Assembly: GCA_037130335.1 (NCBI GenBank)
Contig: JBAXTD010000001.1
Coordinates: 103,419-167,418, forward strand
Source of the DNA: a bacterium
GTDB taxonomy: Bacteria > Patescibacteriota > Minisyncoccia > Phycocordibacterales > UBA9973
Length of the DNA: 64,000 nucleotides
Direction of reading: 5' to 3'
Shown here one piece after another: positions 39,824 to 60,109 of the stretch (position 1 is its first letter; the number at the start of each line of letters is the position of its first letter). The notes below the pieces were generated by a model. It made no database searches and was not told where the DNA came from. It saw only the letters and a list, made by a program, of their open reading frames with translations. The position numbers and the translations under genes are program-made.

Positions 39824-42337
39824 ATGGCTATATTACAGAATCTTTTTGGAGATAGTAAAATGAAGTTTGCAAACAGTGTAAAAGCGGTTGTGGCAGAAGT
39901 TGCATCATATGAAGACGAGCTCAAAACCCTTGAGGATACTGTATTTCCCGAAAAAACAGCAAATTTAAAACTACGATATAAAAACGGAGAAACGCTAGAC
40001 CAATTATTACCCGAAGCATTTGCGCTTGTGCGTGAAGCATCACGTCGTGCTATTGGTCAACGTCATTACGATGTACAAATTATTGGAGGTATTGCACTTC
40101 ATCGAGGCAACATTGCAGAGATGCGCACCGGTGAAGGAAAGACATTGGTAGCAACGCTTCCAGTGTATCTCAATGCGCTTGCTGGACGTGGCGTGCACGT
40201 CGTGACTGTGAATGATTATCTTTCACGTCGTGATGCGGTATGGATGAGTCAGGTGTATCATTTCCTCGGACTTTCTGTGGGTGTAATTAATTCACAAAAT
40301 ATTTCCTATGTATATGATCCTACACACACCGAAAAGCAAACTGAACAAGAAGGAGTTTCTGTATACAAAGTTGTATATGATTTTTTGCGACCATCATCGA
40401 GACGTGATGCATACAACGCAGATATTACGTATGGTACAAATAATGAATATGGTTTTGATTATTTGCGCGACAATTTAGCAACACATGCAGAAAATTTAGT
40501 TCAACGTGATCACTTTTTTGCTGTTGTAGATGAAATCGATTCAATTTTGATTGATGAAGCACGTACACCACTTATTGTTTCTTCTGATTCAGAAGAGTCA
40601 GGAAGTTTTTATAAAACATTTTCTGATATTGCTTCGCAAATGATTGCAGAAGAAGATTTTACTGTAGATGAAAAACGCAAAGCAATTTCGCTTACTGATG
40701 CAGGAATTTCAAAAGCAGAAGCAAAACTTGATATCAGTAATATTTACACCGAAAAAGGAATCAAATATGTTCATCATCTCGAAACCGCAGTGCGTGCAAA
40801 GGCATTGTTTATTCGCGATCGAGATTATGTTGTCAAAGATGGTGAGGTAATCATCGTCGACCCATTTACTGGACGTATGCAGCCGGGTCGTCGTTGGAAT
40901 GAAGGCTTGCATCAAGCAATCGAAGCCAAAGAAAGTGTAAAGATTCAAAAAGAAACTCGCACGAGTGCATCGATTACATTTCAAAATTATTTTAAATTCT
41001 ACGAGAAGCTTTGTGGAATGACAGGAACTGCACAAACAAGTGATGAAGAATTCCGTAAAGTATATGGCTTAACTGTTGCAGTAATTCCAACTCATCGCGA
41101 AATCAAACGTGTTGATCACAATGATTTAATTTTTCAAACAGAAAAGGGTAAATGGCAGGCGATTGCGCGCGAAGTCAAAGCTCGTCACGAAAAAGGTCAG
41201 CCAGTACTTATCGGTACGATTTCAATTGAACGCAATGAATTACTCTCTGCGTATTTGCGTGATGCAGGTGTGCCACATACGCTCCTTAATGCCAAGAACC
41301 ACGAAAAGGAAGGTGAGTTGATTGCTCAAGCAGGTAAGCGTGGAGCAGTAACTGTGGCGACAAACATGGCTGGACGTGGAATTGATATTATTTTAGGTGG
41401 TGTGCCAGCAACCGATGAATCAAAAGAAGAAATCCGTGCGCTTGGTGGATTGTATGTGCTGGGAACAGAACGTCACGAGGCACGTCGTATCGACAATCAG
41501 CTTCGCGGACGCGCAGGACGTCAGGGTGATCCAGGCGAGACACAATTTTTTGTTTCGCTCGAAGACGATCTCATGCGTGTGTTTGGATCTGACCGTATCA
41601 AAAACATGATGGGACGTTTTGGAATTCCAGAAGACCAACCAATCGAAAACAGCATGATTACAAGTGCACTTGAAACTGCTCAGAAAAAAATCGAAGGATT
41701 TCATTTCGATGCTCGTAAATACACACTCGAATACGACAACGTGCTTTCACATCAGCGTGGAATTATTTATTCTCGTCGTCGTACAATGCTTCTTTCCAAA
41801 AAGGAGGACATGCAGACATATCTCGATCAATTCATTGGCGTAGATTCACACGTCGCCACTCTCGTTTCTCAAAAACGAGCGGCATTTGGTGATGATGCGT
41901 TCTTTGAAACATTTCGTCGAATTGTGTTGTTTGTCACTGATACACTGTGGATTGAACATCTCGAGACAATGGAATATTTGCGTTCATCGGTAAATTTGCG
42001 TGCATATGGTGGACGCGAACCGCTTGTCGAGTATCAACGTGAAGGTTTGCGATTATTCAAAGATTTGGAAGCAAGTTTCCGTGAACAAGTAATTGATTTG
42101 GTTGAAAAAATGTCTGAGCAACCCGTGATGCAAAACACACCAATCGAAATTCCCACACCACAAACATTCACTGCAACTCACATGGAACCAGAGGAACTAA
42201 CCGGCAAAGTGGAAAAGAATTCTCCACTCGCACAAAATAATTCTCAATCAAAATCAGAATCAAAAGTAGGTAGAAACGACCCATGTCCATGCGGTAGCGG
42301 CAAAAAATACAAGAAGTGTCATATGAATGGGAACTAG
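39824..42337 (+). CDS. secA: Preprotein translocase ATPase SecA.
   Basis: N-terminus MAILQNLFGD...EMRTGEGKTLVATLP (Walker A), DEAD-like VDEIDSILIDEARTPLI, C-terminal zinc finger CPCGSGKKYKKCH. The last five codons lie inside the attL repeat. Confidence 0.95.
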   Translation: MAILQNLFGDSKMKFANSVKAVVAEVASYEDELKTLEDTVFPEKTANLKLRYKNGETLDQLLPEAFALVREASRRAIGQRHYDVQIIGGIALHRGNIAEMRTGEGKTLVATLPVYLNALAGRGVHVVTVNDYLSRRDAVWMSQVYHFLGLSVGVINSQNISYVYDPTHTEKQTEQEGVSVYKVVYDFLRPSSRRDAYNADITYGTNNEYGFDYLRDNLATHAENLVQRDHFFAVVDEIDSILIDEARTPLIVSSDSEESGSFYKTFSDIASQMIAEEDFTVDEKRKAISLTDAGISKAEAKLDISNIYTEKGIKYVHHLETAVRAKALFIRDRDYVVKDGEVIIVDPFTGRMQPGRRWNEGLHQAIEAKESVKIQKETRTSASITFQNYFKFYEKLCGMTGTAQTSDEEFRKVYGLTVAVIPTHREIKRVDHNDLIFQTEKGKWQAIAREVKARHEKGQPVLIGTISIERNELLSAYLRDAGVPHTLLNAKNHEKEGELIAQAGKRGAVTVATNMAGRGIDIILGGVPATDESKEEIRALGGLYVLGTERHEARRIDNQLRGRAGRQGDPGETQFFVSLEDDLMRVFGSDRIKNMMGRFGIPEDQPIENSMITSALETAQKKIEGFHFDARKYTLEYDNVLSHQRGIIYSRRRTMLLSKKEDMQTYLDQFIGVDSHVATLVSQKRAAFGDDAFFETFRRIVLFVTDTLWIEHLETMEYLRSSVNLRAYGGREPLVEYQREGLRLFKDLEASFREQVIDLVEKMSEQPVMQNTPIEIPTPQTFTATHMEPEELTGKVEKNSPLAQNNSQSKSESKVGRNDPCPCGSGKKYKKCHMNGN

Positions 42338-43914
42338 AAAATAAAGTCGATTTCTACCTTGTTGTCTCCGGCTCGAATCTCCTTGATAATACTGCGTAAA
42401 ATCATCTTTTTCTCATCCAGTTCCATCTTGTCCCAGCAGGCATCAAAATCCTTCAAAGAGGCCACTAATTTGCGTGTTACAGCCACTTTCTGTGCGGTAG
42501 TGGTTGAGAGTAGAGATAAGCGTTCCACCTCCACACGGCTTTTTTGGATTTCCTGCCTAATCCTTGAAATATGCGCATCCAGTTGCTCCAAGGTTTCGAC
42601 TCCTTTTTCATAAGCTTCTTGATGTCGTTGCTCTCTGGCTGGACCTGATTCAATATCTCGGTTTAATCGAGCAATCGTTTTTTCTCTGTCATTTTCTTCC
42701 TGGTTGCCAGCCGTATAAGTTATATTTTCTTGGACCTTGGGGTGCGAATACAGATTTTTTATATGATCCAAAACTGCGCCTTCCAACTTGTCGGCACTCA
42801 TCACTCTTTGAGAGCAAATGCCTTTGTATTTGTATCCCGTGCAGATATATTCAAAAGTCGTTGTATCTTTCCATTTTGGATTTTTGTCAGATCTCTTGTG
42901 GCGACGTTTTTGATAGCCAACGCCGCTCTTGCAGCGGATGCATTTTGCAATTCCGGTGAGAACCCCTAGGGACCTCCCAGCTCCGCCTTTTGCGTGCTTG
43001 GTCCTCCCAGCTCTAATTTCTTTGACGAGGTTAAAAATAGTTTCGTCTACGATGGGGGAGTGTTCGCCATTTCCCACATACCCAACCTTGCCACGTCTCT
43101 GCCATTCCTTATTTTTCTTGTAGTCGGCATGTCTCCAGCCCCACCACACTTTGCCTGTGTATGTCGGATTGGCCAAAATATATCTGATGGTTTGGATACT
43201 CCAATTTATTCCATTGGGAGCGCTCCATCCCTTTTTATTCATTTCGATCGCTATTTTTCTGTCGCCATTGCCCCGAGCATATTCATTGAAGATAAAGCGG
43301 ATTTTCTGCGCTTCATCCTCGTCAACGATGACCGTCCTTTTTATTTTATTACCCTCCAGTGTTCTTACGACTTTGTATCCGTAGGGCACGCGGTTTGGTA
43401 TTTTCCCTTCTTTCGCCTTTATCATTTTTCCGCCCTTCATTCGACGATTGATGGCCGTTCGTTCGAGATCGGCTTTCATGTCTGAGATTGTCTCCATGAT
43501 CGTCGCCGAATCATTGTCGTCTGGGTCGTACTCGCTGACCGACTTTGGCTCGACAGGGGTGTTGATCGAGTAGGTTTGAATCCCGAGCCCTTTTAGTTCT
43601 TGCCGGATGATGGCGGCCGCATCTTTGTTTCTGGCAAATCTGTCATAATCCTTTACTATGATGAGGTCAAATTTATGTTCTCGCGCATCCCGCATCATGG
43701 ACTGCAATCCATGTCGCTCCTCCGTCAAATGACCGCTCACTCCTTCGTCTGTGTATTCCTGAAAAAATATCCATCCCTTTTCAAGTATCACCTTGTGGCA
43801 ATCTCTAATTTGCTGGGGGATTGAAGTTTTTTTCTGAGCTTGCTCTTGAGTACTCACTCTTCCATACGGAGCGACTCTCAAGCTCGTATTCACTGCACCT
43901 GCATTTCTATCCAT
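42334..43914 (-). CDS. Large serine recombinase.
   Basis: N-terminal resolvase domain with the catalytic Ser in YGRVSTQEQ, plus a recombinase domain, Cys-rich zinc ribbon (CIRCKSG...C) and C-terminal coiled coil. Its stop overlaps the secA stop by 2 nt. Confidence 0.8.
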   Translation of the reverse strand: MDRNAGAVNTSLRVAPYGRVSTQEQAQKKTSIPQQIRDCHKVILEKGWIFFQEYTDEGVSGHLTEERHGLQSMMRDAREHKFDLIIVKDYDRFARNKDAAAIIRQELKGLGIQTYSINTPVEPKSVSEYDPDDNDSATIMETISDMKADLERTAINRRMKGGKMIKAKEGKIPNRVPYGYKVVRTLEGNKIKRTVIVDEDEAQKIRFIFNEYARGNGDRKIAIEMNKKGWSAPNGINWSIQTIRYILANPTYTGKVWWGWRHADYKKNKEWQRRGKVGYVGNGEHSPIVDETIFNLVKEIRAGRTKHAKGGAGRSLGVLTGIAKCIRCKSGVGYQKRRHKRSDKNPKWKDTTTFEYICTGYKYKGICSQRVMSADKLEGAVLDHIKNLYSHPKVQENITYTAGNQEENDREKTIARLNRDIESGPAREQRHQEAYEKGVETLEQLDAHISRIRQEIQKSRVEVERLSLLSTTTAQKVAVTRKLVASLKDFDACWDKMELDEKKMILRSIIKEIRAGDNKVEIDFIF

Positions 43915-44092
43915 TTTTAATTTCTAAAAATCGTAATTTTTTTAGTCCGGACATACTAAAAGGACGGTCCTGGCTGCCCAATATACTTGCTCCGTAGGAG
44001 TAGACATAGTGGCAGGACCGCCCTTTTAAGGTCGCTATATCTACTTTATTCCTACACTTTCGTATATCAGGCAGCATAAACATTATACCACA

Positions 44093-44296
44093 TTAAGCCT
44101 CTTTTTGGAGCTCTCTTTGGACGATTTTGTTGATAAGACTAGGCATCAATAGAGACAATTTTTCAGCAAGAGAGTCAACGTCCGTGCCAGCAAAAAATAC
44201 ATCCACAGATGGTCCGCTCTCATCATTGGTCGTATTCTTTTTGGCTGGTACGATTGAGGTCATGTAAGTGTTACTTGTCCTATTTATTTCTTGCAA
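44093..44296 (-). CDS. Hypothetical small protein (67 aa).
   Basis: ORF overlapping the integrase 3' end by 17 nt. No domain. Confidence 0.25.
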   Translation of the reverse strand: MQEINRTSNTYMTSIVPAKKNTTNDESGPSVDVFFAGTDVDSLAEKLSLLMPSLINKIVQRELQKEA

Positions 44297-45392
44297 GAAT
44301 GTCTCGAAAAACCCGAAGTTCTTCTTCGGTCAGGGAACCGTCCTTGTGTTCTCCTTGTGAATTCTTCAGGCTTTTGACGATTCTGATGGCCTCGTTCGCG
44401 GTCATGTTGCCGTACCCATACGAACCGAATGTCGTGGCGACATCTTCGTGTCCCAAGTTGAGGCTGACTGCCTTCTTTTCCTCCTCGGTCAGTCGCTTCT
44501 TGCTCACGATTGCCACCGCCAAATTCCTGAACGAGTGTGGATGATAGTAAGGCATACCGGCTGAGAGGTATCGTTTCTGGAGAATCTTCCGCGCCGATCC
44601 GGAACTGCTCCAAAAATCTGTACCGATCGTTCCTCTGCTGTAAGCGCTCTCGCCAGTTTCAAGATCATTCTGTGTTGTAGGGAAAATCGGATCGTCCGGT
44701 CCGAAGCTCTTCGACTCCAGATATTCGTACCACTCCACGAAGTACCGCTCCGGGTCGTCCCAGCCGAGAGGGAAAAACGTACACAGGATACGTTTCGAGC
44801 TTTTGGTTTTGACGCCGTCCGCGGGGTTCTGGTCGATAACTTTTTCCTGTTTATCAAAACTCTTCATCTTGAGCGTAATGATTGCCGAAATGCGGGCACC
44901 TACCGTAAAGGCAAAACAGATGAGCGCTCGATCGCGCATGTCTATCTCATTTTTGATTTCAATGCCCTCTATGAGCTTCCGGATTTCCTCGAATGTGGGA
45001 ATCTTTTTGGTTGTGCTCTGTCGGGCGATGCGAGTATCCTTTTTGGAAAGACGTAAGTATTCAATATCGCCTTTTGCCATCTTGCTTTTGTACCCTGGCT
45101 GGTCGGAGAGCCATTCGAAAAACTTCTTTACACGGCGGAGATAGTTGTATCGGGTGACAATAGCGATTTTTCCCGTCGGAGTTTTTGACGATTTTGTCTC
45201 AAGCCACTCGACGAACGCCGTCGCCTTCATTTTGTTGAAATTGGCGAAGTCCTCGTTCCCTGTAAAAAGTTGCCACTTGGCAATCGCTCCAGCAAAGACG
45301 AGGATAGAGCCCTTGGTGAACCCTCGGGCACCCAGGAGTTGCTCTAAAAAGTCCCGCTTCGCCTTTTCATTTTCGTATGGTATGTCTGTCAT
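44280..45392 (-). CDS. Tyrosine recombinase / phage-type integrase.
   Basis: SAM-like N-domain. Catalytic R...HPHSFRN...LGHEDVATTFGSYGY (R, HxxR, Y). Confidence 0.8.
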   Translation of the reverse strand: MTDIPYENEKAKRDFLEQLLGARGFTKGSILVFAGAIAKWQLFTGNEDFANFNKMKATAFVEWLETKSSKTPTGKIAIVTRYNYLRRVKKFFEWLSDQPGYKSKMAKGDIEYLRLSKKDTRIARQSTTKKIPTFEEIRKLIEGIEIKNEIDMRDRALICFAFTVGARISAIITLKMKSFDKQEKVIDQNPADGVKTKSSKRILCTFFPLGWDDPERYFVEWYEYLESKSFGPDDPIFPTTQNDLETGESAYSRGTIGTDFWSSSGSARKILQKRYLSAGMPYYHPHSFRNLAVAIVSKKRLTEEEKKAVSLNLGHEDVATTFGSYGYGNMTANEAIRIVKSLKNSQGEHKDGSLTEEELRVFRDILARNK

Positions 45393-45398
45393 AGCCTG

Positions 45399-45632
45399 TT
45401 ATTTCAGTGGTAACGGGGTCGGTTTGAGCGGTTTCAGGGTTTTTGCCATTCTTTCCAAGAGCATGATGTTGGGCAGTAGGTCATTCGCCGCCTGAAACTG
45501 CTTTTTCTTGACGCAAACTTTTTGGATTTTTTTGAGATGTTCGATTTCCGACTCAAGCGCGGAGAGAACGTATGGGATATTTTTAAGACTGATGTTGAGG
45601 CTTATTTTTTCTTCGGTTGATGGAGTTTCCAT
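45399..45632 (-). CDS. Hypothetical small protein (77 aa).
   Basis: Lies between the xis-like gene and the integrase. Confidence 0.3.
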   Translation of the reverse strand: METPSTEEKISLNISLKNIPYVLSALESEIEHLKKIQKVCVKKKQFQAANDLLPNIMLLERMAKTLKPLKPTPLPLK

Positions 45633-45776
45633 GGTGTTAATTTCTGAGATTTTGTTTGTAATAATGCTCGACTGTTTGATTCATTTTTGCTGACTATTTT
45701 TGTCGTGATTTCGGTATGTGCGCCCACGGTTCATAACAGACATTTACGTTAGAAGAGAGGGTATACCATAGTCCTT

Positions 45777-46130
45777 TCAGGAGGGTCTGATTGTCCGGCT
45801 CATCTTCCTGTTGCAGACACGGCATTCGCCTGTTTTTCGGTTCGCCAATTTTCTAATCGTGCCCCGTTTTGCTAGTCGTGCGGCTCTGCATTTGAAGCAG
45901 TAAAACTCACACCGCTTCAACTTCACTTTTTTCTTGGAATCTTTTTTTCGCAAAAATTCTTTGATGTCGGAGCCCAGCAGGAGGATCGGTTTCTTGCTTC
46001 CTTGGACGATTGGCAGGCCGCTCTCGATCCAGCGTGAAATGGTTTTTTCAGTGGCGTCCACATCGTTCGATAGTTCTTTGATCGTGTAACTGATATGGTC
46101 ATATATTTTTTGACGGTTTATCCGTGTCAT
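45777..46130 (-). CDS. Excisionase-like HTH DNA-binding protein with a C-terminal zinc ribbon.
   Basis: YTIKELSNDVDATEKTISRWIESGLPIV HTH (Xis/MerR-type), plus CEFYCFKC...CRVC. Confidence 0.5.
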   Translation of the reverse strand: MTRINRQKIYDHISYTIKELSNDVDATEKTISRWIESGLPIVQGSKKPILLLGSDIKEFLRKKDSKKKVKLKRCEFYCFKCRAARLAKRGTIRKLANRKTGECRVCNRKMSRTIRPS

Positions 46131-46141
46131 CGGATTCCGCT

Positions 46142-46426
46142 CTATTCCGAGTAGAGTTTGTTCTTTAGCGCCTTCATGTGGTCAAAATACGACCGGGCTT
46201 TGACCTCCAAGCGGTTCGAGAAATACTTGTCAGTTACTTCCTCGATGCCACTTTCCTTTTTGAACATAAACAGAGCTTTGCGCGGATTGCTTTTTTCAAC
46301 CGCTACAAGCTCAAAATCCGCACATAGGAGTGCGGCTGATACACCGAGGTCGTACGTTGTCCACACGAAATCGGGGTCATCGAGCGGGATGGACCCGCGA
46401 GATGCTTTCTTTGCTTTGTTACTCAT
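46142..46426 (-). CDS. Hypothetical protein (94 aa).
   Basis: Immediately downstream of the 582-aa gene on the same strand. Confidence 0.35.
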   Translation of the reverse strand: MSNKAKKASRGSIPLDDPDFVWTTYDLGVSAALLCADFELVAVEKSNPRKALFMFKKESGIEEVTDKYFSNRLEVKARSYFDHMKALKNKLYSE

Positions 46427-46597
46427 CGTAATTTTAGCTAGGTTTTGTAATATGAGAGTGTTCCTGCTCTCAATTACAGTTTTGATTTTTTGGAATGTTC
46501 TGCGTATTTCTTGTGATTTCTTGGAAACGCAAAATCCACCTTTATTTCAAAGGTGGATTTTTTCTAGAGAGAGCGATTTTTCAAGAAGTCACAGGAT

Positions 46598-48346
46598 TTA
46601 GCCCATCTTGTTATTGAAGCTCACTCCGACGGCTCGTACTATCTTGATGAGTGGTTTTCCATTATCTTCCGTTTTTGCTATTTCGGCGTATCGTAGAAAT
46701 CCGTTGCTCTTATCGGTGAGATTCGTTTGTATGAACTTCCGCATTTCCTCGTCATTTTTCGATTTTAATTTCGGAATCCGGCTCTTTACTTCGGCGAATA
46801 GTTCCTCATATTTTATCTCTCCGCCCTCGGGTCGGGTCGCATATAAAGCGCTGAATGTCTTGTAGTAATCAGCATCTTTTGAAAGGCCAAGCACGCCGCC
46901 CTTATACTTAAAATCGTCGCCATTTTTTGTGATATAAAAAAGATTTTGCGGATTTTTTTCGTACTTATTTAGTACCTCAATTTTCATTACGCCATCTTTT
47001 TCGGGAGTGACTTTTTTAGTCCTTTGCTCTGAAATGAGCTTTGTTATCTCTTCGAGCTGTTTTTCTTCGTCTGTCATTTCAGATTTTTCCTCGCCAAGAA
47101 TACATAATTTTGTAATCTCGCTATGCGTGCTATACAGCGATGGCCTGATTGTATCCCAAGACAGAACAGGACCAAGCGTCTCCGTCGGATTTTTAGGGTC
47201 GCCGTTCCATTCCATTTCGGCAGAATACAGATCGCCCTTAAATTGCTTGCAAGGATTGATACGATAGTGTTTCAAGGACAAACCGCGCGTGATGGTTTCG
47301 ATTTTATTTTTGAGCAAAAGGTAGGCGCTGTTCAGCTCCTTTGTGGGGTGGGTGATGTTCTCGCAAAAAATCTCAAGAATATCCATATATGCCTGGTGGT
47401 GTTTTCTCAATTCCTCGATTACATCTTTTTTTGCGAGCGCTGTCGCTTTGTCCTGCAAAATATCTTTTTCCTCCCATTCGAGTAAGACGTCGTCTGGTAA
47501 AATTGGCTGTTCTTCAAAACTTGTTATGATGTACTCGTTCCCGAGACGCTCGACAAGAAAATTATCATATTTCAAATACTTTTCTAGTTTTACAGCAAGC
47601 TCATCCGTCCTCTTCTCGTTGGCGTTGTGATTGAGCGGATGGAGGAGTGTTGTGATTATTTCTTTGATGGTCCAGTTTGCGTTGATGGCTTTTTTACGGA
47701 TAGTTTGTAGAACATCGTCAAAGTTGTAAAAAGAATTTTCTTCAAACAAGTCATCCACTAAGTAGGCGTGGATTACTTTTTGATTATAGAGCGCAGGTTC
47801 CTCCTCTATGATCGGTGATATAATTTTTCTTATAGCAAAATTGGTGAGGTAATTGTTGATTTCCTCCGCGACCAATTCAAGAACCTTCTCGCTGAAAGTG
47901 CCACTATTTATATCGGGCAATTCTTTGACTTCATCTTTTGTTGTTTCTTCCGAATTGATTTCCTCGGTGTCGTCGGTGATCGGCACGATTTTTGCAATGC
48001 GTTCGTCTGATTGTATCCGTAGGTTTTCGTAAGAAAGTACCTGGTTTAGCCCGTCAATAAAATTTTTTCGTAATTGCAAATCGGTGAAATTTAGTGGATG
48101 ACAAAACTCTTCAAGAACGCTAAAAAGTCCATCCTCTGTCGGTATTTTACCGAACGCATCAAGTGTTATTCGCCATTTGGCGTAGAGTGCTACGTCGGTA
48201 GAGATATGAGCATCCGTAAAGACATTCACGATCTCGTTTGTCGTAAATTGTCCCGCTATTAAGCGAGCGATTTTTTCTTTGACTCGAACACTGATTTTCA
48301 TAGTTGAGAGTAATAGTAATTTTCTTGCACAATTGAATCCTAGCAT
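46598..48346 (-). CDS. Large uncharacterised island cargo protein (582 aa, mostly helical).
   Basis: No recognisable catalytic motifs. Divergently transcribed from the AbiE pair. Confidence 0.5.
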   Translation of the reverse strand: MLGFNCARKLLLLSTMKISVRVKEKIARLIAGQFTTNEIVNVFTDAHISTDVALYAKWRITLDAFGKIPTEDGLFSVLEEFCHPLNFTDLQLRKNFIDGLNQVLSYENLRIQSDERIAKIVPITDDTEEINSEETTKDEVKELPDINSGTFSEKVLELVAEEINNYLTNFAIRKIISPIIEEEPALYNQKVIHAYLVDDLFEENSFYNFDDVLQTIRKKAINANWTIKEIITTLLHPLNHNANEKRTDELAVKLEKYLKYDNFLVERLGNEYIITSFEEQPILPDDVLLEWEEKDILQDKATALAKKDVIEELRKHHQAYMDILEIFCENITHPTKELNSAYLLLKNKIETITRGLSLKHYRINPCKQFKGDLYSAEMEWNGDPKNPTETLGPVLSWDTIRPSLYSTHSEITKLCILGEEKSEMTDEEKQLEEITKLISEQRTKKVTPEKDGVMKIEVLNKYEKNPQNLFYITKNGDDFKYKGGVLGLSKDADYYKTFSALYATRPEGGEIKYEELFAEVKSRIPKLKSKNDEEMRKFIQTNLTDKSNGFLRYAEIAKTEDNGKPLIKIVRAVGVSFNNKMG

Positions 48347-48456
48347 CTTTTTCTATGAAAACTAAGTGTTTTTTGTTGTTCTCAAAACTTGCTGTTATTT
48401 TAAGATATGCTAAACTGTTTCCAAAGAGTGCTATAAATAGCATCTTTTGGAAATAT

Positions 48457-49083
48457 ATGCAATATCAAGAATTACGTCAAAAACTCAAGGATTTCAGTGT
48501 TTTTTCGCTTTCAGACATTCGAAAGATCGAATCTGATTTTCATCGTCGTCGCTTGAATGAATGGCAAGAAAAGGGTTATATCAAGAAGCTCCGTCGCGGA
48601 TACTATATTTTCTCCGATCTCTTAATCTCCGAAGAGACGCTTTTTCTCATTGCCAATCGTCTTTATAATCCCTCGTACGTATCACTTGAGATGGCGATGT
48701 CGCGCTACGGATTGATTCCTGAGTCGGTCTATGGCGTGACTTCAGTTGGGAGTAAAAAGACCGCCGATTTTAAGACACCGATAGCAACTTTTCTATATCG
48801 CAGTATCAAGCCGTCGCTTCTTTTTGGCTACAAGCTGGAAGGAACAAAGAAGCAGAAATATAAGATCGCCGAGATTGAAAAGGCGGTGTTAGATTATCTC
48901 TATTTCAACAAACATTTATCCGCTGACGATGATTTTGAGGGGATACGTTTCAATGGCGAGGAGTTTCTAAAAAAGGCTGATATGTTGAAGTTCGAGCGAT
49001 ACCTCAGAGTATTCAAGAATAAAAATTTAACAGAGCGGGCTGGTGCGCTTATCAATTATATAAAGAATAACAACCATGCTTAG
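48457..49083 (+). CDS. AbiEi-family antitoxin / transcriptional regulator (type IV TA / Abi).
   Basis: N-terminal wHTH MQYQELRQKLKDFSVFSLSDIRKIE...GYIKKLRRGYYIFSD typical of the AbiEi N-domain. Start placed at the internal ATG 48457. Confidence 0.65.
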   Translation: MQYQELRQKLKDFSVFSLSDIRKIESDFHRRRLNEWQEKGYIKKLRRGYYIFSDLLISEETLFLIANRLYNPSYVSLEMAMSRYGLIPESVYGVTSVGSKKTADFKTPIATFLYRSIKPSLLFGYKLEGTKKQKYKIAEIEKAVLDYLYFNKHLSADDDFEGIRFNGEEFLKKADMLKFERYLRVFKNKNLTERAGALINYIKNNNHA

Positions 49084-49852
49084 CCTTCAAGAAATCGAAG
49101 TTCAGTATCCAGAAAACCTACGCCCCTTCAAGCGCAACATTTTGCGTGAGTATTTGCAATACAAGATTTTGGAGATCATCTTCAAATCGTCTCACGCGGC
49201 TAAGCTTTCCTTTCTCGGGGGTACGGCGCTCCGAATCGTCCACAACAACAGTCGCTTCTCGGAGGATCTTGATTTTGATAACTTCGGGCTGGAAGAGAGT
49301 GAGTTCAATGCTATCGCCGAAGAGGTAAAAGCAGGGCTCGATGCTCTTGGATTGAAGACGGAAATCAATACTGTGATGAAGGGAGCATATCGTTGCAACG
49401 TCAGACTTCCTGAAGTGCTTTTTGTGAATGAACTATCTCCCTTGCAAGAGGAAAAGATATTGATCCAGATCGACACGGTCCCACACCAGTATCCATATAC
49501 GCCTGACAAAAAAATCCTCAACAAGTTTGACGTGTTTTCGGAGATCTTTGTCACGCCCGTGTCGCTCTTGCTTTCACAAAAAATCTGGGCTGCCATCAAT
49601 CGCAAGCGAGCAAAGGGTCGTGATTTCTACGACATCGTCTTTCTCTTTTCTTTCACTAAACCTGAGTACCCGTATTTGATGCAGAAGATCGGTGCGGGCG
49701 ATGGGGAAGCGGTTCGACAAAAGCTACTCGACTCTATCCAAGACCTAGATTTTAAGATGCTTGCTGACGATGTTCGTCCGTTCCTATTCAATCCGGCTGA
49801 TGCACAGAAGGTTGAGCTTTTCAGGGAATTTGTAGTTCAAGTAGAGTTTTAG
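49076..49852 (+). CDS. AbiEii/AbiGii-family nucleotidyltransferase toxin (DUF1814).
   Basis: LREYLQYKILEIIFKS...LSFLGGTALRIVHNNSRFSEDLDFDNFG is the hallmark N-terminus. Overlaps AbiEi by 8 nt. Confidence 0.7.
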   Translation: MLSLQEIEVQYPENLRPFKRNILREYLQYKILEIIFKSSHAAKLSFLGGTALRIVHNNSRFSEDLDFDNFGLEESEFNAIAEEVKAGLDALGLKTEINTVMKGAYRCNVRLPEVLFVNELSPLQEEKILIQIDTVPHQYPYTPDKKILNKFDVFSEIFVTPVSLLLSQKIWAAINRKRAKGRDFYDIVFLFSFTKPEYPYLMQKIGAGDGEAVRQKLLDSIQDLDFKMLADDVRPFLFNPADAQKVELFREFVVQVEF

Positions 49853-49867
49853 TATAATTGCAAATAT

Positions 49868-50641
49868 ATGAATTTCGAATTACCAAAATTACAACGCATG
49901 CCAGATGAGCCATCAGGCAGTGCTGATAATGAGACAATAAAAATAGGAAAACAGTATAATGAGTTTGCTGAAAATTTCGCTGATAAACATAAAAATTTAG
50001 ATGAAATTACGCAAGCTTCTTTTCAAAAAGCACTATTAGGAATAGTGTTTAAAGACAAAAAAGTTATTGATTTAGGGTGTGGAGATGGTTACGATTTATT
50101 GAAACTGCAAGAAAAAGGAGCGATTGTTTACGGTCTTGACGCTTCTGAAGAAATGATAAAACTTGCAAAGGCAAAGAACAGCCAGGGTAATTTTGAGAAT
50201 GGTTTTTTTGAAAATATTCCTTATGCCGATGCTTCTTTCGATGTTGTTATAAGTAAATATGCAATGCAAACAAGCAAGGATGTTCCTAAAATACTAGAGG
50301 AAGTTGGGCGAATTTTAAAACCTGGCGGAAAACTTGTGTATGTAGTAACTCATCCAGTCAGACAATTTATGGAGAAAAAGAAGGCGAACAAGGATTATTT
50401 TGAACAAGAGGTAGTAGATTCTGTTTTGTTTGACGGTGCAATTACTGTTCACGAGCCATCGCACACCCTCGCTGAATATCTTAATCCAGAATTTTTAAAA
50501 AATTTCGACTTAACTTTTTACGAAGAAAAATTTGATCCAAGTAATGCTGAAATGGTAGAAGGCTCAAGTTACCCAGCTTTTCTTTGTGTTGGAGCAAAAA
50601 GAAAAAATGCGAGTGAATCAACAATTTCTCAAACAGCTTAA
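49868..50641 (+). CDS. Class I SAM-dependent methyltransferase.
   Basis: VIDLGCGDGYD motif I, DASEEMI, LKPGGKLV. Confidence 0.6.
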   Translation: MNFELPKLQRMPDEPSGSADNETIKIGKQYNEFAENFADKHKNLDEITQASFQKALLGIVFKDKKVIDLGCGDGYDLLKLQEKGAIVYGLDASEEMIKLAKAKNSQGNFENGFFENIPYADASFDVVISKYAMQTSKDVPKILEEVGRILKPGGKLVYVVTHPVRQFMEKKKANKDYFEQEVVDSVLFDGAITVHEPSHTLAEYLNPEFLKNFDLTFYEEKFDPSNAEMVEGSSYPAFLCVGAKRKNASESTISQTA

Positions 50642-50756
50642 TACCAAGTTAGAACTATTGTTATTCAATAATTAACTCAACAAAACCCTCCCTAGACGGC
50701 ATTAAAAAAGACCATGATTGAAATCATGGTCTTAAGTATCTTCGTCTAGGTGCACC

Positions 50757-51548
50757 TTATGCTCTTACTTTTTCAAGCAGGTTCTCCGTTGTAAATGGCA
50801 GTTGTAGATAATGAGGATTATCATTTGCCATCCACCCCGCAGCGATCACTCGCTGTTCGGGTTTTTTCGCCACTAACAATTTCTCAAAAACATCTTTTAC
50901 ATCTTTGCTTTTTACTTGCCCGTTAATCTCGCCTATAAGCAAGGTGATATCAGGATTTTTTTCAGCAAATGTAAGGGGGGCGTTTTCAGTACTCTCATTA
51001 GGGACAAAAATTACATTGAAGTCTGCCTTTAAGCTCTCTTCCAGTCTTTTTTTGTAGTCGTCATTGACTCCAATTAACATGAAAGATTTCTTAGTAGAAG
51101 CTTTCGGCTGCTCGCCAAGTTCGGCGTTCTCGATGGACATAAACCCTTCCGCTGCTGCCAGCCAGTTTTTGTTTCCCTGGTTGAAGCCGCTTACGAATGA
51201 GTTTTTGCCAAGGAGGCTGTCCATCGCCCAAGCTATGGGGCTCGCGTGATGACTGATGTCAGTCAATATGGCTACATGGGGAACGCCCGTGTTTTTTGCC
51301 AATATTGAAAGTATCAGACCGTACGGAGTGTCCTTACCGATTTCGGCTGTAGGGCCGACGCCTTCCTTCTCTCCCGGCATCATCAGATCCGTCAGCAGGA
51401 TGTCGAACTTCCTGGTTTTTAACAAGCCCACCGCCATGGAGTACATGGGGCAGCAAGTCAGGATGACATTTTTGCCGTTGAATTGTTTTTCTGCCGCATC
51501 AAGGTTTGCGCGCGTGTCGTCTACTACTAAGATTGCTATCTTTTTCAT
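50757..51548 (-). CDS. Orphan response-regulator receiver (REC) domain protein with an uncharacterised C-terminal half.
   Basis: ILVVDD (acid pocket) and DILLTDLMMPG (phospho-Asp) motifs. The C-terminal ~140 aa is unknown, possibly a second degenerate flavodoxin-like fold. Confidence 0.55.
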   Translation of the reverse strand: MKKIAILVVDDTRANLDAAEKQFNGKNVILTCCPMYSMAVGLLKTRKFDILLTDLMMPGEKEGVGPTAEIGKDTPYGLILSILAKNTGVPHVAILTDISHHASPIAWAMDSLLGKNSFVSGFNQGNKNWLAAAEGFMSIENAELGEQPKASTKKSFMLIGVNDDYKKRLEESLKADFNVIFVPNESTENAPLTFAEKNPDITLLIGEINGQVKSKDVKDVFEKLLVAKKPEQRVIAAGWMANDNPHYLQLPFTTENLLEKVRA

Positions 51549-51793
51549 ATTTGTTGATTTTAAGTTTGAAATTATTGGTTTATTTCAACCTCTCTGTCGG
51601 GAGGGGCTCAAATAAACCAATAAAGCTTAAAATCAAAGGTTATTAAGGATTTCTTAAATCTTGATTATATCATAGCATGTTTATATATAAAAGTCAAGGC
51701 TAATTCAGCCTCGGCTTGGCCAATTGTTGACTTTCTATAAATATATGTTATCCTATAAAAAAATCACTCTTTCAACTTTTAAATAGCACTTTT

Positions 51794-52111
51794 ATGAAGA
51801 AAATAATGGTTTTCGGTATTTTCGTTTGCTGCATCGCGGCCAGTTGTTCTAAGCGCCCCCAAGTTGTTAAAGTCCTGCCTGGCAAGCTCGTTCGAGTGAT
51901 CGGCAACGATGTATTCTGCCAGTTAAAGCTCGAAGTCGATACTTCACTGAAAGGAGGATTCGGCATTGTTGCCACCTCCTACAACGTATTCGATCACGAC
52001 GCCGAGAAAGGTGACAGTATGCGGGTGGCTCTGTATTCTGACGGGTCCGTCGAAGCTCATACGTACCGCATGCGTACGGACATCATGATCAGGGAGGATC
52101 GCGGGGACTGA
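51794..52111 (+). CDS. Small secreted protein or lipoprotein.
   Basis: Signal peptide MKKIMVFGIFVCCIAASCS. Confidence 0.4.
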   Translation: MKKIMVFGIFVCCIAASCSKRPQVVKVLPGKLVRVIGNDVFCQLKLEVDTSLKGGFGIVATSYNVFDHDAEKGDSMRVALYSDGSVEAHTYRMRTDIMIREDRGD

Positions 52112-52255
52112 TGCCAAAAGGAAAACGGGTGCGCCTATTCGTAAAAGTGCCCACAAATTAAGCCCTTGGAAAAACCAAGGCACTGTCGCAAGGTAATTGC
52201 TTTGCCTGATGAGTCCATGAGGACGAAACAGCTGTTCTTTACATAAAAAATCTAT

Positions 52256-53053
52256 ATGCTCAATTTCAAGGAGTTCCAAGCCAAAGCTCGGGAACTATTC
52301 GGCAAACTGAACTGCGATCCGGCCGGTGACGACCCCATCACATTTCTGCACTCCCTTCCCTGGGAGATACCGAACGGTCCTGCTTTTTCCGAAGAGGAAG
52401 TGGCACGAATGAATATCGACTTCGACGTGCGCGGCTGTTTCGGCCGGGCACTCAAAGCCGCAGTGTTGGTTGAGAAGTATTTTCCGAACGAAACTTTTTA
52501 CAACGGCGAGGTGCTCGAAGACTTGCTTCGCTCCATGCTAATGAAAAAAGTGACACCGGAAAAATGGCATGACGATACCTACGTCGCTGAGATTCTCCAG
52601 TATGAGAATCCGCACGTGGCGATCGTCTGGAACGATTCGCAGTTTGATCCAATCTTCAGTCTTCTGACTGACAGGCCGGAAACGCTCAAGCATCCGTCAA
52701 TATTGAAACATAGCCAATGGGAAGGATTGTACTGCTACTATCTCGTAAGCAGTGGCATGCTCTTGTTCAGACAAAAGCAAAATCCAAACCTATACTTGCA
52801 AGCTCTCAAGCAAGCCGAGGCGATCTGCCCGCACATGCTTCTCGTCAAAGAAAATCTGGTGAGCGCACTCTGCGCCCTGAACAGATTCGACGAGTCGGTC
52901 GCGATTGCGAAATCGCTGGTCGGAAAGCGCAAGGACGCGAAAATGCTATGGTTCCTATTGCAGATGACCGGAGACCCGGCGTACAAAGATCGGCTCGTAC
53001 GCGAGTATGACATCCAAATGCTTCACTTCTTAAACAAAGCGTTCATACCATGA
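52256..53053 (+). CDS. Hypothetical protein (265 aa, high GC).
   Basis: Helical, TPR-like C-terminus. Translationally coupled (ATGA) to the next ORF. Confidence 0.45.
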   Translation: MLNFKEFQAKARELFGKLNCDPAGDDPITFLHSLPWEIPNGPAFSEEEVARMNIDFDVRGCFGRALKAAVLVEKYFPNETFYNGEVLEDLLRSMLMKKVTPEKWHDDTYVAEILQYENPHVAIVWNDSQFDPIFSLLTDRPETLKHPSILKHSQWEGLYCYYLVSSGMLLFRQKQNPNLYLQALKQAEAICPHMLLVKENLVSALCALNRFDESVAIAKSLVGKRKDAKMLWFLLQMTGDPAYKDRLVREYDIQMLHFLNKAFIP

Positions 53054-53235
53054 CACCATCGGACTTGTCACCCGCTATGCGTAAGGCCTACGAGGCCCTT
53101 CCGGAAAACGAAAGAGAAGCGTTCCTTGAAGAGTATGCACACTGGTACGGCGAAACCGTGCGAGGAAACATATCTCGCATAATGGCACGCAATTTTTCGC
53201 ACAATGTTGGGAAACATGTGACGGAAGCGCAGTAA
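53050..53235 (+). CDS. Hypothetical small protein (61 aa).
   Basis: Its start overlaps the previous stop. Confidence 0.35.
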   Translation: MTPSDLSPAMRKAYEALPENEREAFLEEYAHWYGETVRGNISRIMARNFSHNVGKHVTEAQ

Positions 53236-53349
53236 AGAAATTGAAATTCCCAAAGGATAACGGACGAGCCTATATGTAAAATCGTCCACATTTTAGAGCC
53301 CATGAGGAAACTCGTGGTCTCTGAATGAAATTGTACTTTCACAAAATTT

Positions 53350-53395
53350 TTATTGATGACCAGAGAAGGTCACCACCTTTTGTGGTCATCAATAA
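53350..53395. promoter_or_regulatory. Perfect 12-bp inverted repeat (ttattgatgacc N22 ggtcatcaataa), operator-like.
   Basis: Read directly from the sequence. Sits at or over the 5' end of the 53407 gene. Confidence 0.4.
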
Positions 53396-53406
53396 AATCT
53401 CAAATA

Positions 53407-53979
53407 ATGGAAATTATATATAAGAGTAATTCGACTATGGACTTTGCCACTCGCGTAAAGGAAACCATAACATATCTGGACACGGCGATTTTCGAAAAGC
53501 CCGCACGAGTGTCAATAAATACTGACGTGCGTTACGCGAATTTCGGCACTGGTGGATTCATGTCAAAAAGATTGCTATTCAGATTGCTTGGATTATCTGA
53601 TGACTATGTCATCTTTGAAAGAAGCAAGAAAATGGAAATTATAATGAAGATGGACTTCATGGCCACCTGCCTCGCCGCGCACGAAGTTCGGCATCGGTTC
53701 CAACATTACAACAAGAAGACGCTCATCACTTTTGATTTTCTACAGAAGAATAAGATTCTTACTGAACCGGCACTCGCGCACATTCAGAAAGGAAACTATG
53801 ATCTGTACGGAAAAGACAAAGAGATGTATGGGCGCGAGTTTGATGCCTCGGCGATCGAGACGATAATCTCCGGTTGCTCCAAGGCTAAGAATTTCACGAT
53901 GAACGACGTGATTGATTTGATAAAGTGCAATGAAAGCACAATTAGTCAGATTGTCTCTGGAATTGCTAAGCGAAGGTAA
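53407..53979 (+). CDS. Hypothetical protein.
   Basis: ORF from 53353. The internal ATG at 53407 was preferred because the palindrome covers 53350-53395. Confidence 0.4.
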   Translation: MEIIYKSNSTMDFATRVKETITYLDTAIFEKPARVSINTDVRYANFGTGGFMSKRLLFRLLGLSDDYVIFERSKKMEIIMKMDFMATCLAAHEVRHRFQHYNKKTLITFDFLQKNKILTEPALAHIQKGNYDLYGKDKEMYGREFDASAIETIISGCSKAKNFTMNDVIDLIKCNESTISQIVSGIAKRR

Positions 53980-54029
53980 GTTGTTCTCAGTCAAGAAAAT
54001 CCCAAAGCCAACCATTTCGGTTGGCTTTT

Positions 54030-54272
54030 TTACTTTTCTATTTTGGTAAAGCGAAACGCGATAAATGAGAGGTAGAAAAGAACGAGCATTTCGATCCATG
54101 TCATCCAGAGCGGATAGGTCATGCCGCCGAGGCTGATTTCAAATCCGGTCATGATACGGAGCAGGTGAATAAATCCGCCGAAGAAAAAGAGGACTGTGGA
54201 AATATAGAAAAATATTTTCTTGTTCATGGATACAAGAATAGCATATCTAAAAAACGCCATATGTGTGTACAC
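54030..54272 (-). CDS. Small membrane protein (80 aa, 2 TM).
   Basis: Hydrophobic helices. Confidence 0.3.
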   Translation of the reverse strand: MYTHMAFFRYAILVSMNKKIFFYISTVLFFFGGFIHLLRIMTGFEISLGGMTYPLWMTWIEMLVLFYLSFIAFRFTKIEK

Positions 54273-54286
54273 ATTACCACGGTCTA

Positions 54287-55215
54287 CGTATTGTAACCAA
54301 TAGCTTCACACCACCTGCATTGGAGTTAAGTAATTAATCCCTCCATGAACTCGTTTGTTGTTGTAATATTTTAAATACTTTTTAAGTGCACAATTAATTT
54401 CCGAAACATCATTTGAAATTTTGTCTAAACATTCTTCTTGTACTGTTCGATTGAATCTTTCAACATGTGCATTGTCATTCGGTTTTCCGATTCGGGTATA
54501 CCGATGATTTTTCTGTATTTGAGTTACAAACCATTTCCCAAACTCCGGTCCGTGATCCGATTGTAGCATTTTGAATTTGAATGAAGAATGTCGTTGCGCT
54601 TCATTCACAAACCGTATTGTGGTTTGTGAATTCATTTTTGCATATGCTTTTGCATATACCCAACGTGAATATGTATCAATGATGACAAAAACATACAGAC
54701 GTTTCTTCTCCGATATCATCCGATGGATTGTATCAATCTCTAGTAAATCGCCTGATTTCAAGGCGTATGGGCGGTCTACATGCGGATGATATCGTTTCCA
54801 AGGACTTCGTTTCTTCGTTAAATATTTTCGATCGAGTGTTCTTTTTACAGACGAAAGAGAAACTGTTACTCCATCATTTTCTAACTCTTTGTGAACTGCT
54901 TCTGCATATCGATTGTGTTCCAATCTTTTCTTTACGATTTTTCTGACGATATTTTCTGGTAGGGCATTCGGATGTGATTTTGGTTTTGAACTTTTTGTTA
55001 GTATTGGGTGGTCTCCAATGATTCTTGATTTTCGTACCCATTCGGTAATCGCTGTATGATGGAAACCCAGATATCTTCCGACCTTTCTTGCACTCCAACC
55101 TTTATGGACGAGACGCGCTGCGTCTCGTCTGATTCGTGGCATGTTTTTGTTTGATGTGTATGGCATGCTTGATATGGTAATCCAGCGGGTGGTGCCAAGC
55201 TATTGAACCTATACG
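54287..55215 (-). mobile_element. IS481-like insertion sequence (929 bp) with ~38-bp imperfect terminal inverted repeats and a 6-bp target-site duplication GGTCTA.
   Basis: Left end cgtattgtaaccaatagcttcacaccacctgcattgg versus the reverse-complemented right end cgtataggttcaatagcttggcaccacccgctggatt. GGTCTA at 54281-54286 and 55216-55221. Confidence 0.7.
54306..55166 (-). CDS. DDE transposase (HTH plus rve integrase core), IS481/IS3-superfamily type.
   Basis: N-terminal HTH. DDE triad at IDTIH, QSDHGPEF and ERFNRTVQEE. C-terminus is YYNNKRVHGGINYLTPMQV. Confidence 0.8.
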   Translation of the reverse strand: MPYTSNKNMPRIRRDAARLVHKGWSARKVGRYLGFHHTAITEWVRKSRIIGDHPILTKSSKPKSHPNALPENIVRKIVKKRLEHNRYAEAVHKELENDGVTVSLSSVKRTLDRKYLTKKRSPWKRYHPHVDRPYALKSGDLLEIDTIHRMISEKKRLYVFVIIDTYSRWVYAKAYAKMNSQTTIRFVNEAQRHSSFKFKMLQSDHGPEFGKWFVTQIQKNHRYTRIGKPNDNAHVERFNRTVQEECLDKISNDVSEINCALKKYLKYYNNKRVHGGINYLTPMQVV

Positions 55216-55290
55216 GGTCTATTGACATTCTATACATTATATGATAATATACCAGCGATAAATGTTCACTCACAATTAAATATATAACTC

Positions 55291-56037: not shown

Positions 56038-56048
56038 TCTGCATCGGG

Positions 56049-56075
56049 CGACACAATTAAGACCATACTTCTGTA
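56049..56075 (+). terminator. Rho-independent terminator.
   Basis: aagaccatacttctgtatggtctttt. Confidence 0.6.
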
Positions 56076-56232
56076 TGGTCTTTTCTTATAGAGTTTTCTT
56101 AACTGCACGCCGACACCCGAATATTTTTTGTGTGCTAGAATAGGGAACATGACCACCGAAAAACAGACTATTTTAGCTTTCCCATTAGTACAACATGTCA
56201 AGAATTGTCACGGGAAATAAAAACTTTTTTTT

Positions 56233-56553: not shown

Positions 56554-56556
56554 TAT

Positions 56557-57084: not shown

Positions 57085-57087
57085 TTC

Positions 57088-57585: not shown

Positions 57586-57588
57586 TTT

Positions 57589-58086: not shown

Positions 58087-58125
58087 AATTCCCATACGTG
58101 TTTTTTTGCGGTAAAATACAATCTC

Positions 58126-59331: not shown

Positions 59332-59357
59332 AAAACACCCATATGGGTGTTTTTTAT
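59330..59357. terminator. Bidirectional terminator.
   Basis: aaaaacacccatatgggtgtttttt. Confidence 0.7.
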
Positions 59358-59360
59358 TGT

Positions 59361-59663: not shown

Positions 59664-59709
59664 ATATTTATGTATTATCTTTTAATAGTAAAAACTTATT
59701 GATTATAAG

Positions 59710-60024: not shown

Positions 60025-60109
60025 CAGGCTACATACTACGCATTATTTATTGCCAAAGTGTCAAGGTTTGTATTGCAAAAAACCCTTATAAAATAAGGGT
60101 TTTTTGCCT

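Follow-up and report, generated by a model that had tools for sequence, protein, structure and literature searches.

A 64,000-nt stretch of a Patescibacteriota contig (JBAXTD010000001.1, positions 103,419 to 167,418; the whole stretch is here called the window) carries at the 3' end of its secA gene an island of about 13.9 kb, running from about 42310 to about 56210, which encodes two recombinases of different chemistry. One is a large serine recombinase (LSR), the other a tyrosine recombinase accompanied by a small helix-turn-helix and zinc-ribbon protein (HTH-Zn). Besides this recombinase module the island encloses AbiEi/AbiEii, a methyltransferase and an rve-family insertion sequence (IS). 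Which of the two enzymes brought the island to secA, and what would be left for the other to do? An earlier note on this DNA had left the mover open and had thought, from a directly repeated core at the island ends, that tyrosine chemistry was the better fit. Because eight other elements at secA ends carry an LSR homologue without a tyrosine recombinase, we consider the question settled for the window in favour of the LSR. The full reading, in which the LSR and not the tyrosine recombinase inserted the island into the secA end and the recombinase core has a role of its own, we put at a probability of roughly 0.7.

The serine integrase and the end of secA

The features at the two island ends, with open reading frames (ORFs) and putative attachment (att) sites, are these:

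39824-42337, plus strand: secA, convergent with the LSR gene; the two stop codons overlap in CTAG.
42278-42345, plus strand: putative attL (B-O-P'), composed of the last secA codons, the core CAAGAAGTGTCA (42310-42321) and an element-supplied secA tail, (K)KCHMNGN-stop.
42334-43914, minus strand: LSR, 526 aa, the predicted island integrase, from a clade specific for the secA 3' end.
43934-44043, minus strand: conserved region upstream of the LSR, with a 16-nt inverted repeat (43957-43972 and 44013-44028).
44093-44263, minus strand: s56, a 56-aa ORF, part of the LSR module that was swapped in.
56167-56234, plus strand: putative attR (P-O-B'), composed of the P arm ...TTTCCCATTAGTACAACATGTC, the core CAAGAATTGTCA (56199-56210) and the displaced original secA tail AAGAATTGTCACGGGAAATAA (KNCHGK-stop, 56200-56220).

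The LSR possesses Resolvase, Recombinase and Zn_ribbon_recom domains (E 1e-25, 3.8e-19 and 5.8e-8, all past their cut-offs). Its best NCBIfam similarity is to CcrB, at 168.9 bits against a cut-off of 900, which places it outside the Ccr equivalogs of the staphylococcal cassette chromosome mec (SCCmec). The search returned 269 homologues of 43-80% identity, and ten genomic contexts of such homologues were compared besides the window's own contig. The following converge on secA (L numbers denote loci; identities are to the LSR of the window):

L072-74: LSR 69% identical; 4-nt stop-codon overlap with secA, as in the window.
L076/77: LSR 67% identical; 4-nt stop-codon overlap with secA, as in the window.
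L087 and L107: LSR 59-61%, C-terminal fragment only; the LSR stop abuts the secA stop, and the secA tail CHMNGN-stop equals that of the window.
L101: LSR 62%; convergent, about 117 nt from the secA end.
L158: LSR 52%; convergent, 126 nt from the secA end.
L160: LSR 47%; convergent, 20 nt from the secA end.
L162: LSR 43%; convergent, 9 nt from the secA end.

Together these make up eight independent elements in which an LSR homologue (43-69% identity) converges on the 3' end of secA, four with overlapping or abutting stops and four at a distance of 9-126 nt. No tyrosine recombinase was found in the flanking 8-10 kb of any of them, and their cargo varies (Prim-Pol, type I restriction-modification, P4-like primase). 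The earlier note had proposed to look for homologues of both enzymes at secA 3' ends: those of the LSR are there, in the eight elements, and among 64 tyrosine-recombinase loci a single one, that of this window, abuts secA.

A further relative, L075 (LSR 71% identical), lies away from secA. After its LSR stop codon there is a mimic of the secA tail, KMCHMNRN-stop, beyond which the sequence diverges, and the region therefore has the appearance of an attP site. The attL of the window was placed at the point, 42310, where nucleotide homology to this attP-like locus breaks off, by comparison of the junctions and by rebuilding attP and attB. The rebuilt attP (56167-56200 plus 42312-42345) can be aligned continuously with the sequence that follows the LSR stop codon of L075 (51 of 68 positions identical). 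Its 34-nt arms show dyad symmetry at 21 of 34 positions, a value matched by 9 of 50,000 shuffles, and its centre is the AA within the shared CAAGAA. This attP overlaps the LSR's own stop codon and carries the replacement for the last secA codons. The rebuilt attB (42278-42311 plus 56201-56234) encodes ...GSGKKYKNCHGK-stop, compared with KNCHGQ-stop in L084. These are sites of the LSR type, that is, a simple dyad-armed attP and attB around a central dinucleotide, with an attB that is recurrently occupied by members of the clade. The match of the predicted attP to L075, an LSR locus without a tyrosine recombinase, argues for the serine route.

In relatives, unoccupied secA genes end in ...KKYKKCHG(A/Q)-stop and occupied ones in ...KKC(H/C)MxxN-stop, a difference from which it follows that the last secA codons are supplied by the element. 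When the relatives' natural tail was sought in 42400-60300, on both strands and with up to 4 mismatches, the sole match was AAGAATTGTCACGGGAAATAA at 56200-56220; it encodes KNCHGK-stop, has 3 mismatches in 21 positions to the tail of L084, and lies immediately upstream of p106. The secA genes of the closest relatives are 75% identical to that of the window. In L078 secA is followed directly by a homologue of the window gene at 60225-60899; in L084 about 1.85 kb of other sequence and, after it, a p106 homologue come between these two genes. Integration by the LSR thus exchanges the last codons for those borne by the element, so that secA stays intact and its former tail comes to lie at the opposite island end.

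The directly repeated core described by the earlier note does exist: CAAGAAGTGTCA at 42310-42321 and CAAGAATTGTCA at 56199-56210 share a near-identical 12 nt, CAAGAA[G/T]TGTCA. Judged from these comparisons it is a duplicated secA tail, a mimic borne by the element and standing beside the displaced original. Such a duplication is expected whichever enzyme acted, so the repeat is uninformative for tyrosine chemistry; the note's preference for that chemistry does not hold, and the 34-nt dyad arms around AA belong to the serine pattern. One might still propose that the tyrosine recombinase, with HTH-Zn as its excisionase, inserted the island through the repeated core and that the LSR is a passenger. 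The 12-nt core at both ends, the intact recombinase and the HTH_17-type protein upstream of it would accord with this. We find it scarcely credible, however: the core is a duplicated tail of no diagnostic value, the eight other secA-end elements have an LSR and no tyrosine recombinase, the attP arms are shared with an LSR-only element and run over the stop codon of the LSR, an arm-binding domain is missing from the recombinase, and of the tyrosine-recombinase loci only that of the window abuts secA.

Generic repeat searches of the window gave no convincing island-end repeat and missed the 12-nt core. Several other candidates were rejected. The 12-nt exact repeat GCAAAAAATACA (42300-42311 and 44190-44201) is put down to chance, its second copy lying within the conserved s56 ORF. 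A 21-nt similarity at 56489-56508 is not an island end, being within the conserved p106 gene, and a KKCC... peptide at 60121, in a promoter-like region, is not a secA tail. A short inverted match at 54213-54225 falls within a small membrane-protein ORF, while a P-arm-like 9-mer near 59990 has the wrong orientation and is not significant. Exact-protein look-ups for an empty site returned the same arrangement only.

Beyond the island, the stretch 56233-60024, from p106 to a gene of the major facilitator superfamily (MFS), encodes a NIF3-cap-like protein, two NUDIX proteins, an AAA_18 kinase-like protein, the MFS transporter and two small ORFs. This block is missing between secA and the next conserved gene in L078, and L084 has only p106. 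The region downstream of secA is therefore a variable hotspot that reaches beyond the island itself.

Homology to other LSR elements spans the LSR, the conserved upstream region with its 16-nt inverted repeat, and s56, and stops just before the stop codon of the tyrosine recombinase. The upstream region (43934-44043) is 79% identical to L075 and aligns with L072 up to 44043. By tblastn s56 matches small ORFs that precede the LSR gene in L072 (35% identity, E 8e-7) and in L075 (E 7e-5); it is not present in the other tyrosine-recombinase loci. From the extent of this homology, s56 and the LSR (42311-44263) were exchanged together, as one module. A module specific for secA has thus taken the place downstream of the recombinase core, and s56 may be a regulator or directionality factor. 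The earlier note had placed the tyrosine gene 400 bp from the serine recombinase and in the same orientation. The orientation stands; the distance is 365 bp, and the gap is occupied by s56 and the conserved LSR upstream region.

A recurrent core with exchangeable serine integrases

Upstream of the LSR module the island continues as follows:

44280-45392, minus strand: tyrosine recombinase, 370 aa, simple (Xer-like), predicted to be catalytically intact.
45399-45632, minus strand: p77, a 77-aa ORF between the 48-nt site and the recombinase, in one subfamily only.
45731-45781, minus strand: 48-nt non-coding conserved site, CCAAAAGGACTAt..GATAyyC...TAAATGTCC; a candidate recombination site or operator for the recombinase and HTH-Zn.
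45777-46130, minus strand: HTH-Zn, 117 aa, with an N-terminal MerR/Xis/gpNu1-type winged helix-turn-helix (HTH) and a C-terminal CxxC-21-CxxC zinc ribbon.
46142-46426, minus strand: DUF5659 protein (Pfam E 1.4e-9; cluster c6 in 19 loci), frequent in the conserved core.
46598-56037, mixed strands: island cargo, comprising a 582-aa protein, AbiEi/AbiEii, an S-adenosylmethionine (SAM) methyltransferase, a receiver-domain protein, unknowns, an rve-family IS transposase and a trypsin-like protein.

Loci related to the recombinase were collected from one genome per species, the ORFs being called, clustered and mapped. Among 185,579 species representatives there were 66 such loci, all in metagenome-assembled genomes (MAGs) of Patescibacteria except for a few with evidently wrong taxonomic labels. 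No relatives were found among the viral contigs of IMG/VR. The recurrent order is variable cargo, DUF5659, a 60-aa protein (c4), HTH-Zn, the recombinase, a 60-aa HTH_17 protein (c3, found in 30 loci), the LSR and host DNA, with p77 preceding the recombinase in one subfamily. In 62 of 64 loci, the window counted, the LSR lies downstream of the recombinase and on the same strand. The gap between them is usually 2-440 bp and is longer only where other genes have been inserted, for example a type III restriction-modification cassette in two loci.

This order bears on the description of the tyrosine recombinase and HTH protein, in the earlier note, as a second recombination module inside the island. 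Both genes do share the island with the serine recombinase, since its ends at about 42310 and about 56210 enclose them. They do not make up a second module: HTH-Zn, recombinase and LSR form one string of genes in those 62 loci, with a site that occurs once per locus and not as a flanking pair. The note had held that a recombinase pseudogene, or an unrelated nested element with its own repeats, would tell against it. Neither was seen, and the constancy of the LSR's position and strand downstream of the recombinase rules out the nested element.

Within the string the partners differ in how closely they are bound. Pairwise identities of the recombinase and HTH-Zn are correlated with a Spearman coefficient of 0.86, those of the recombinase and LSR with one of 0.28. 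The LSRs of L004, L013, L025 and L026, for instance, are 85-94% identical and their recombinases 52-58%. Between the window and its nearest family member the recombinase is 62% and HTH-Zn 71% identical, whereas the LSR is at most 27% identical to any LSR of the family. On these figures HTH-Zn and the recombinase co-evolve, and the LSR behaves as a swappable module. HTH-Zn, the 48-nt site and the recombinase are the constant part, the core, of a family of islands in Patescibacteria that seems not to have been described before. Elsewhere in this family other LSR lineages hold the position that the secA-specific LSR holds here, most of them apparently targeting tRNA genes.

In 47 of 62 family loci ARAGORN finds a convergent tRNA gene that overlaps the 3' end of the LSR ORF by at least 13 nt (Gln, Ser, Asp, Lys, Arg, Asn or Ala); of the other loci about six stop at a contig edge near that end. 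Examples, within loci L003-L067, are L011:12929-13000, L004:12921-13006 and L040:12743-12816. From this overlap it follows that in this family attP lies within the LSR 3' end and that the element brings along the 3' end of its target gene; the window shows the secA version of this design. Displaced tRNA 3' fragments were sought within 10 kb upstream in the relatives, and none was found. Where two loci have recombinases at least 80% identical, the median identity of their LSRs is 48% if the targets differ and 90% if the target is the same (p 2e-5, a value that is indicative only, as the pairs are not independent). For pairs with LSRs at least 70% identical the recombinase identity is alike for same- and different-target pairs. 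Target choice thus appears to follow the LSR and not the tyrosine recombinase. tRNA genes are the classical targets of tyrosine integrases, and their use by large serine integrases has rarely been reported (PMC7192596). The overlaps suggest that the LSRs of this family are large serine integrases which target tRNA genes.

The tRNA loci also give room to another role for the tyrosine recombinase, as a second integrase with the 48-nt site as its attP for other chromosomal or plasmid sites, perhaps the one that integrates the tRNA-sited relatives. The site adjoins the recombinase gene, as in many int-attP modules, and the 47 tRNA loci are of the kind typical for tyrosine integrases (PMC7192596). 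But each of the 63 occurrences of the site is whole, with no case of a split, the junction with host DNA is in every locus at the LSR 3' end, where the tRNA overlaps the LSR ORF, and recombinases 81-89% identical sit at different tRNAs in elements whose LSRs are dissimilar. This explanation we hold to be unlikely.

Several observations concern the cargo of the family. In some loci the type III restriction-modification genes (Mod and Res) lie upstream of the core and on the strand opposite to it, in others between the small HTH_17 gene and the LSR (L021:11113-15520 and L028:9716-14001, compared with L005, L007, L013 and L035); within the islands they behave like a mobile cassette. Cluster c12, present in seven loci including L048 and L059 (1090-2055), is a reverse-transcriptase-like protein that has a YGDD motif and, judged by eye, is retron- or group-II-like. 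In the window itself an AbiEi-like antitoxin and an AbiEii nucleotidyltransferase toxin (48355-49852, plus strand) are followed by the SAM-dependent methyltransferase (49868-50641) inside the island, and the rve-family (IS-type) transposase (54306-55166, minus strand) is nested near the attR end. The 582-aa protein (46598-48346, minus strand) has its C-terminal 125-190 residues or so in common with ORFs of L009 and L014 (41-62% identity), and a different internal segment, residues 229-444, matches L058 at 30%. Its position upstream of DUF5659 is held elsewhere by other large unannotated proteins (clusters c8, c40, c49, c53, c55 and c56).

The tyrosine recombinase, HTH-Zn and the 48-nt site

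The recombinase scores 39.4 bits against Pfam Phage_integrase (PF00589), above the gathering cut-off of 27.1, and in the Pfam scan its N-terminus has a weak SAM-like core-binding match only. As the earlier note had it, the active site is intact: R167, K197, H286, R289, H315 and Y325/Y327 are invariant in the recombinase and 18 homologues, 19 sequences with a mean column identity of 75%. Because of this invariance we judge the enzyme to be intact and the gene not to be a pseudogene. Domain scans show a simple tyrosine recombinase, one that lacks an arm-binding domain. XerH is its only sequence match in the PDB, and its NCBIfam scores lie below the Xer cut-offs (XerD 41.6 vs 329.6, XerA 42.3 vs 220, XerS 21.9 vs 267). 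More than 550 homologues at about 60% identity carry the names Paceibacterota, Moranbacteria and Minisyncoccota, and a full HMMER scan gave a family of 240 representative clusters at E <= 1e-30.

A housekeeping Xer role was rejected, the module lying between attL and attR, being rare among genomes and coinciding with no GC-skew switch in the window. The enzyme also falls outside the tyrosine integrases of phages and of integrative and conjugative elements, having no arm-binding domain, island ends of the LSR type and a candidate site which is internal and intact. Nor is this an integron platform, as the conserved site occurs once per locus and there are no repeat arrays around the module.

The HTH-Zn ORF was left uncalled by the gene callers on both public copies of the contig. 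It is conserved directly upstream of the recombinase in about 52-55 related loci (tblastn and maps), and C78, C81, C103 and C106 are invariant among 52 orthologues, C74 being variable. The match to HTH_17 (PF12728) is below threshold (21.1 bits, cut-off 27), while several orthologues bear PF12728 in precomputed annotation. Its AlphaFold model, with a mean confidence (pLDDT) of 83.6, has a winged HTH followed by a beta ribbon, and the fold resembles the DNA-binding domain of the small terminase gpNu1, BldC and RacA, of the MerR/Xis superfamily. None of its 45 homologues in the protein database has a functional name. We take HTH-Zn, on its conservation, to be a real gene despite the missed call. 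The earlier note had described an Xis-like HTH protein with a CxxC...CxxC ribbon 385 bp upstream of the recombinase; gene, winged HTH and ribbon are as described and the gap is 384 bp, but "excisionase" is a label at the level of fold only.

That gap holds p77 and the 48-nt site. p77 occurs in 9 loci of one subfamily at 74-86% identity and matches nothing in Pfam or NCBIfam; the idea that it is an invertible segment was rejected, because relatives do not conserve the flanking 11-nt inverted repeat (45382-45392 and 45733-45743). The site is non-coding and lies immediately downstream of the HTH-Zn stop. By nhmmer it is present as one copy per locus, in 62 loci and the window, always between HTH-Zn and the recombinase. 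Its spacing is fixed, 10 columns are invariant in an independent alignment, and it is kept across loci whose recombinases share just 46-60% identity. RNAalifold gave no consensus RNA structure, Rfam no match and a promoter scan no consensus promoter. An apparent doubling of the site in L059 was rejected as a scaffold-gap artefact, a run of Ns at 10264-10363 flanked by repeated sequence; the same gap splits the recombinase gene in that MAG.

PADLOC, run on the core proteins, returned only a generic HTH match. One of the secA islands with an LSR and no tyrosine recombinase, L160, encodes a DUF5659 protein (6428-6673) and a 78-aa HTH_17/MerR protein (7744-7980), and these are therefore general components of Patescibacterial islands rather than specific partners of the recombinase.

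What, then, might the core do? With one conserved site next to its gene, the recombinase calls to mind XerH/difH, XerS/difSL, Cre/loxP and the resolution modules of plasmids, and because of this likeness we propose a resolution role. The recombinase, helped or regulated by HTH-Zn, would act on the one adjacent 48-nt site independently of the chromosomal target, and its likeliest job would be to resolve multimers or tandem copies of the excised or integrated element. HTH-Zn would be an accessory or autoregulatory DNA binder rather than a classical excisionase. We advance this assignment of functions tentatively, at somewhat less than even odds.

Two other roles have to be set beside it. HTH-Zn and the recombinase might be a docking or fusion system, in which the 48-nt sites of sibling elements recombine to give cointegrates and an exchange of cargo and LSRs. 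LSR modules and cargo are indeed shuffled between recombinase lineages, and L063 carries two copies of the recombinase. One would then hardly expect the two genes, on opposite sides of the site, to be as congruent as they are (Spearman 0.86), nor the swap point of the window's LSR to lie downstream of the recombinase (44263-44280), away from the site; the sole apparent double site, that of L059, is the artefact already described. We regard docking as quite improbable. Very improbable, in our view, is that the module is a regulatory relic, with a recombinase inactive here, or an invertase or phase switch for neighbouring genes. The island of the window was integrated without need of the recombinase, as a relic would allow, yet the catalytic residues are invariant across more than 60 genomes, the family comprises the 240 clusters mentioned above, and the surroundings of the module gave neither an inverted copy of the site nor a segment framed by inverted repeats.

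A number of points weigh against the combined reading, in which the LSR moves the island and the core has its separate function. Excision of the island and activity of the recombinase are predictions from sequence, and a search for circle-type terminal overlap in small contigs found no circular contig. The 48-nt site is without a clear dyad of recombinase-binding arms around a 6-8 bp spacer and could be merely an operator or promoter region. No replication gene was recognised in the conserved core, so that the need for multimer resolution is conjecture. The target statistics come from the non-independent pairs noted above. Finally, a share of the recombinase in the integration of the tRNA-targeting relatives is kept as a rival, tRNA being the classical tyrosine target (PMC7192596).

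Relation to known systems and meaning for the family

The LSR is closest in kind to the large serine integrases that act at the 3' end of a conserved gene, such as CcrA/CcrB of SCCmec at rlmH/orfX, and to those of phages phiC31, Bxb1 and A118. It has the same Resolvase/Recombinase/zinc-ribbon architecture, a dyad attP (about 50-68 bp) around a central dinucleotide, a target gene left intact and small partner proteins encoded upstream. It differs in its score (169 vs 900 bits), in its target, the SEC-C zinc-finger tail of secA, and in its Patescibacteria hosts. Unlike those systems, it has an attP that runs over the stop codon of the integrase gene. Its sister lineages overlap tRNA genes, a kind of target for which reports on large serine integrases are rare.

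The recombinase resembles the single-recombinase Xer systems (XerH/difH of Helicobacter and XerS/difSL of streptococci) in the absence of an arm-binding domain, in its PDB match to XerH and in the conserved site immediately upstream. In contrast to them it resides on a mobile island, at 66 loci in 185,579 species representatives, and scores under the Xer cut-offs; there is no GC-skew switch here, the site has no obvious 11-6-11 dyad, and a dedicated HTH/zinc-ribbon partner is present. With Cre/loxP of P1 and ResD/rfsF of F it shares one cognate site by the recombinase gene, a single copy per replicon and independence of location, but no replication functions are recognised in the core, and the relationship goes no further than the tyrosine-recombinase fold. 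As in Int/Xis of the lambda type, a small winged-HTH protein of the MerR/Xis/gpNu1 type is encoded beside a tyrosine recombinase. The module of the window differs from these in having no arm-binding domain and an extra zinc ribbon, in lying off the island end and in a candidate site that is intact when integrated; moreover, HTH_17 proteins also accompany the LSR in these islands (c3 in 30 loci, the 78-aa protein in L160).

For the island of the window attL, attR, attP and attB can now be given at base level. New pairs of serine integrase and att site, with highly conserved targets, are on offer. The islands are a recurrent Patescibacterial architecture in hosts with tiny genomes and poorly known mobile elements. 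We found no prior description: searches of the literature on DUF5659 and on recombinases of the candidate phyla radiation turned up no account of the paired architecture or of DUF5659. The family carries restriction-modification, Abi and retron-like cargo, and combines a conserved tyrosine module with swappable serine integrases. Serine integrases that target secA or tRNA genes contradict the usual rule by which a tRNA target means a tyrosine integrase. It is possible, though doubtful, that these are obligate two-recombinase islands of the defence type, in which an exchangeable LSR, with its attP inside its own 3' end, supplies the 3' end of the target (a tRNA gene in most members, secA here) and the Xer-like recombinase, HTH-Zn and the 48-nt site provide a second, target-independent function needed for the life cycle. 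If that is true, the two-recombinase islands would furnish some of the first well-supported examples of large serine integrases with tRNA genes as targets.

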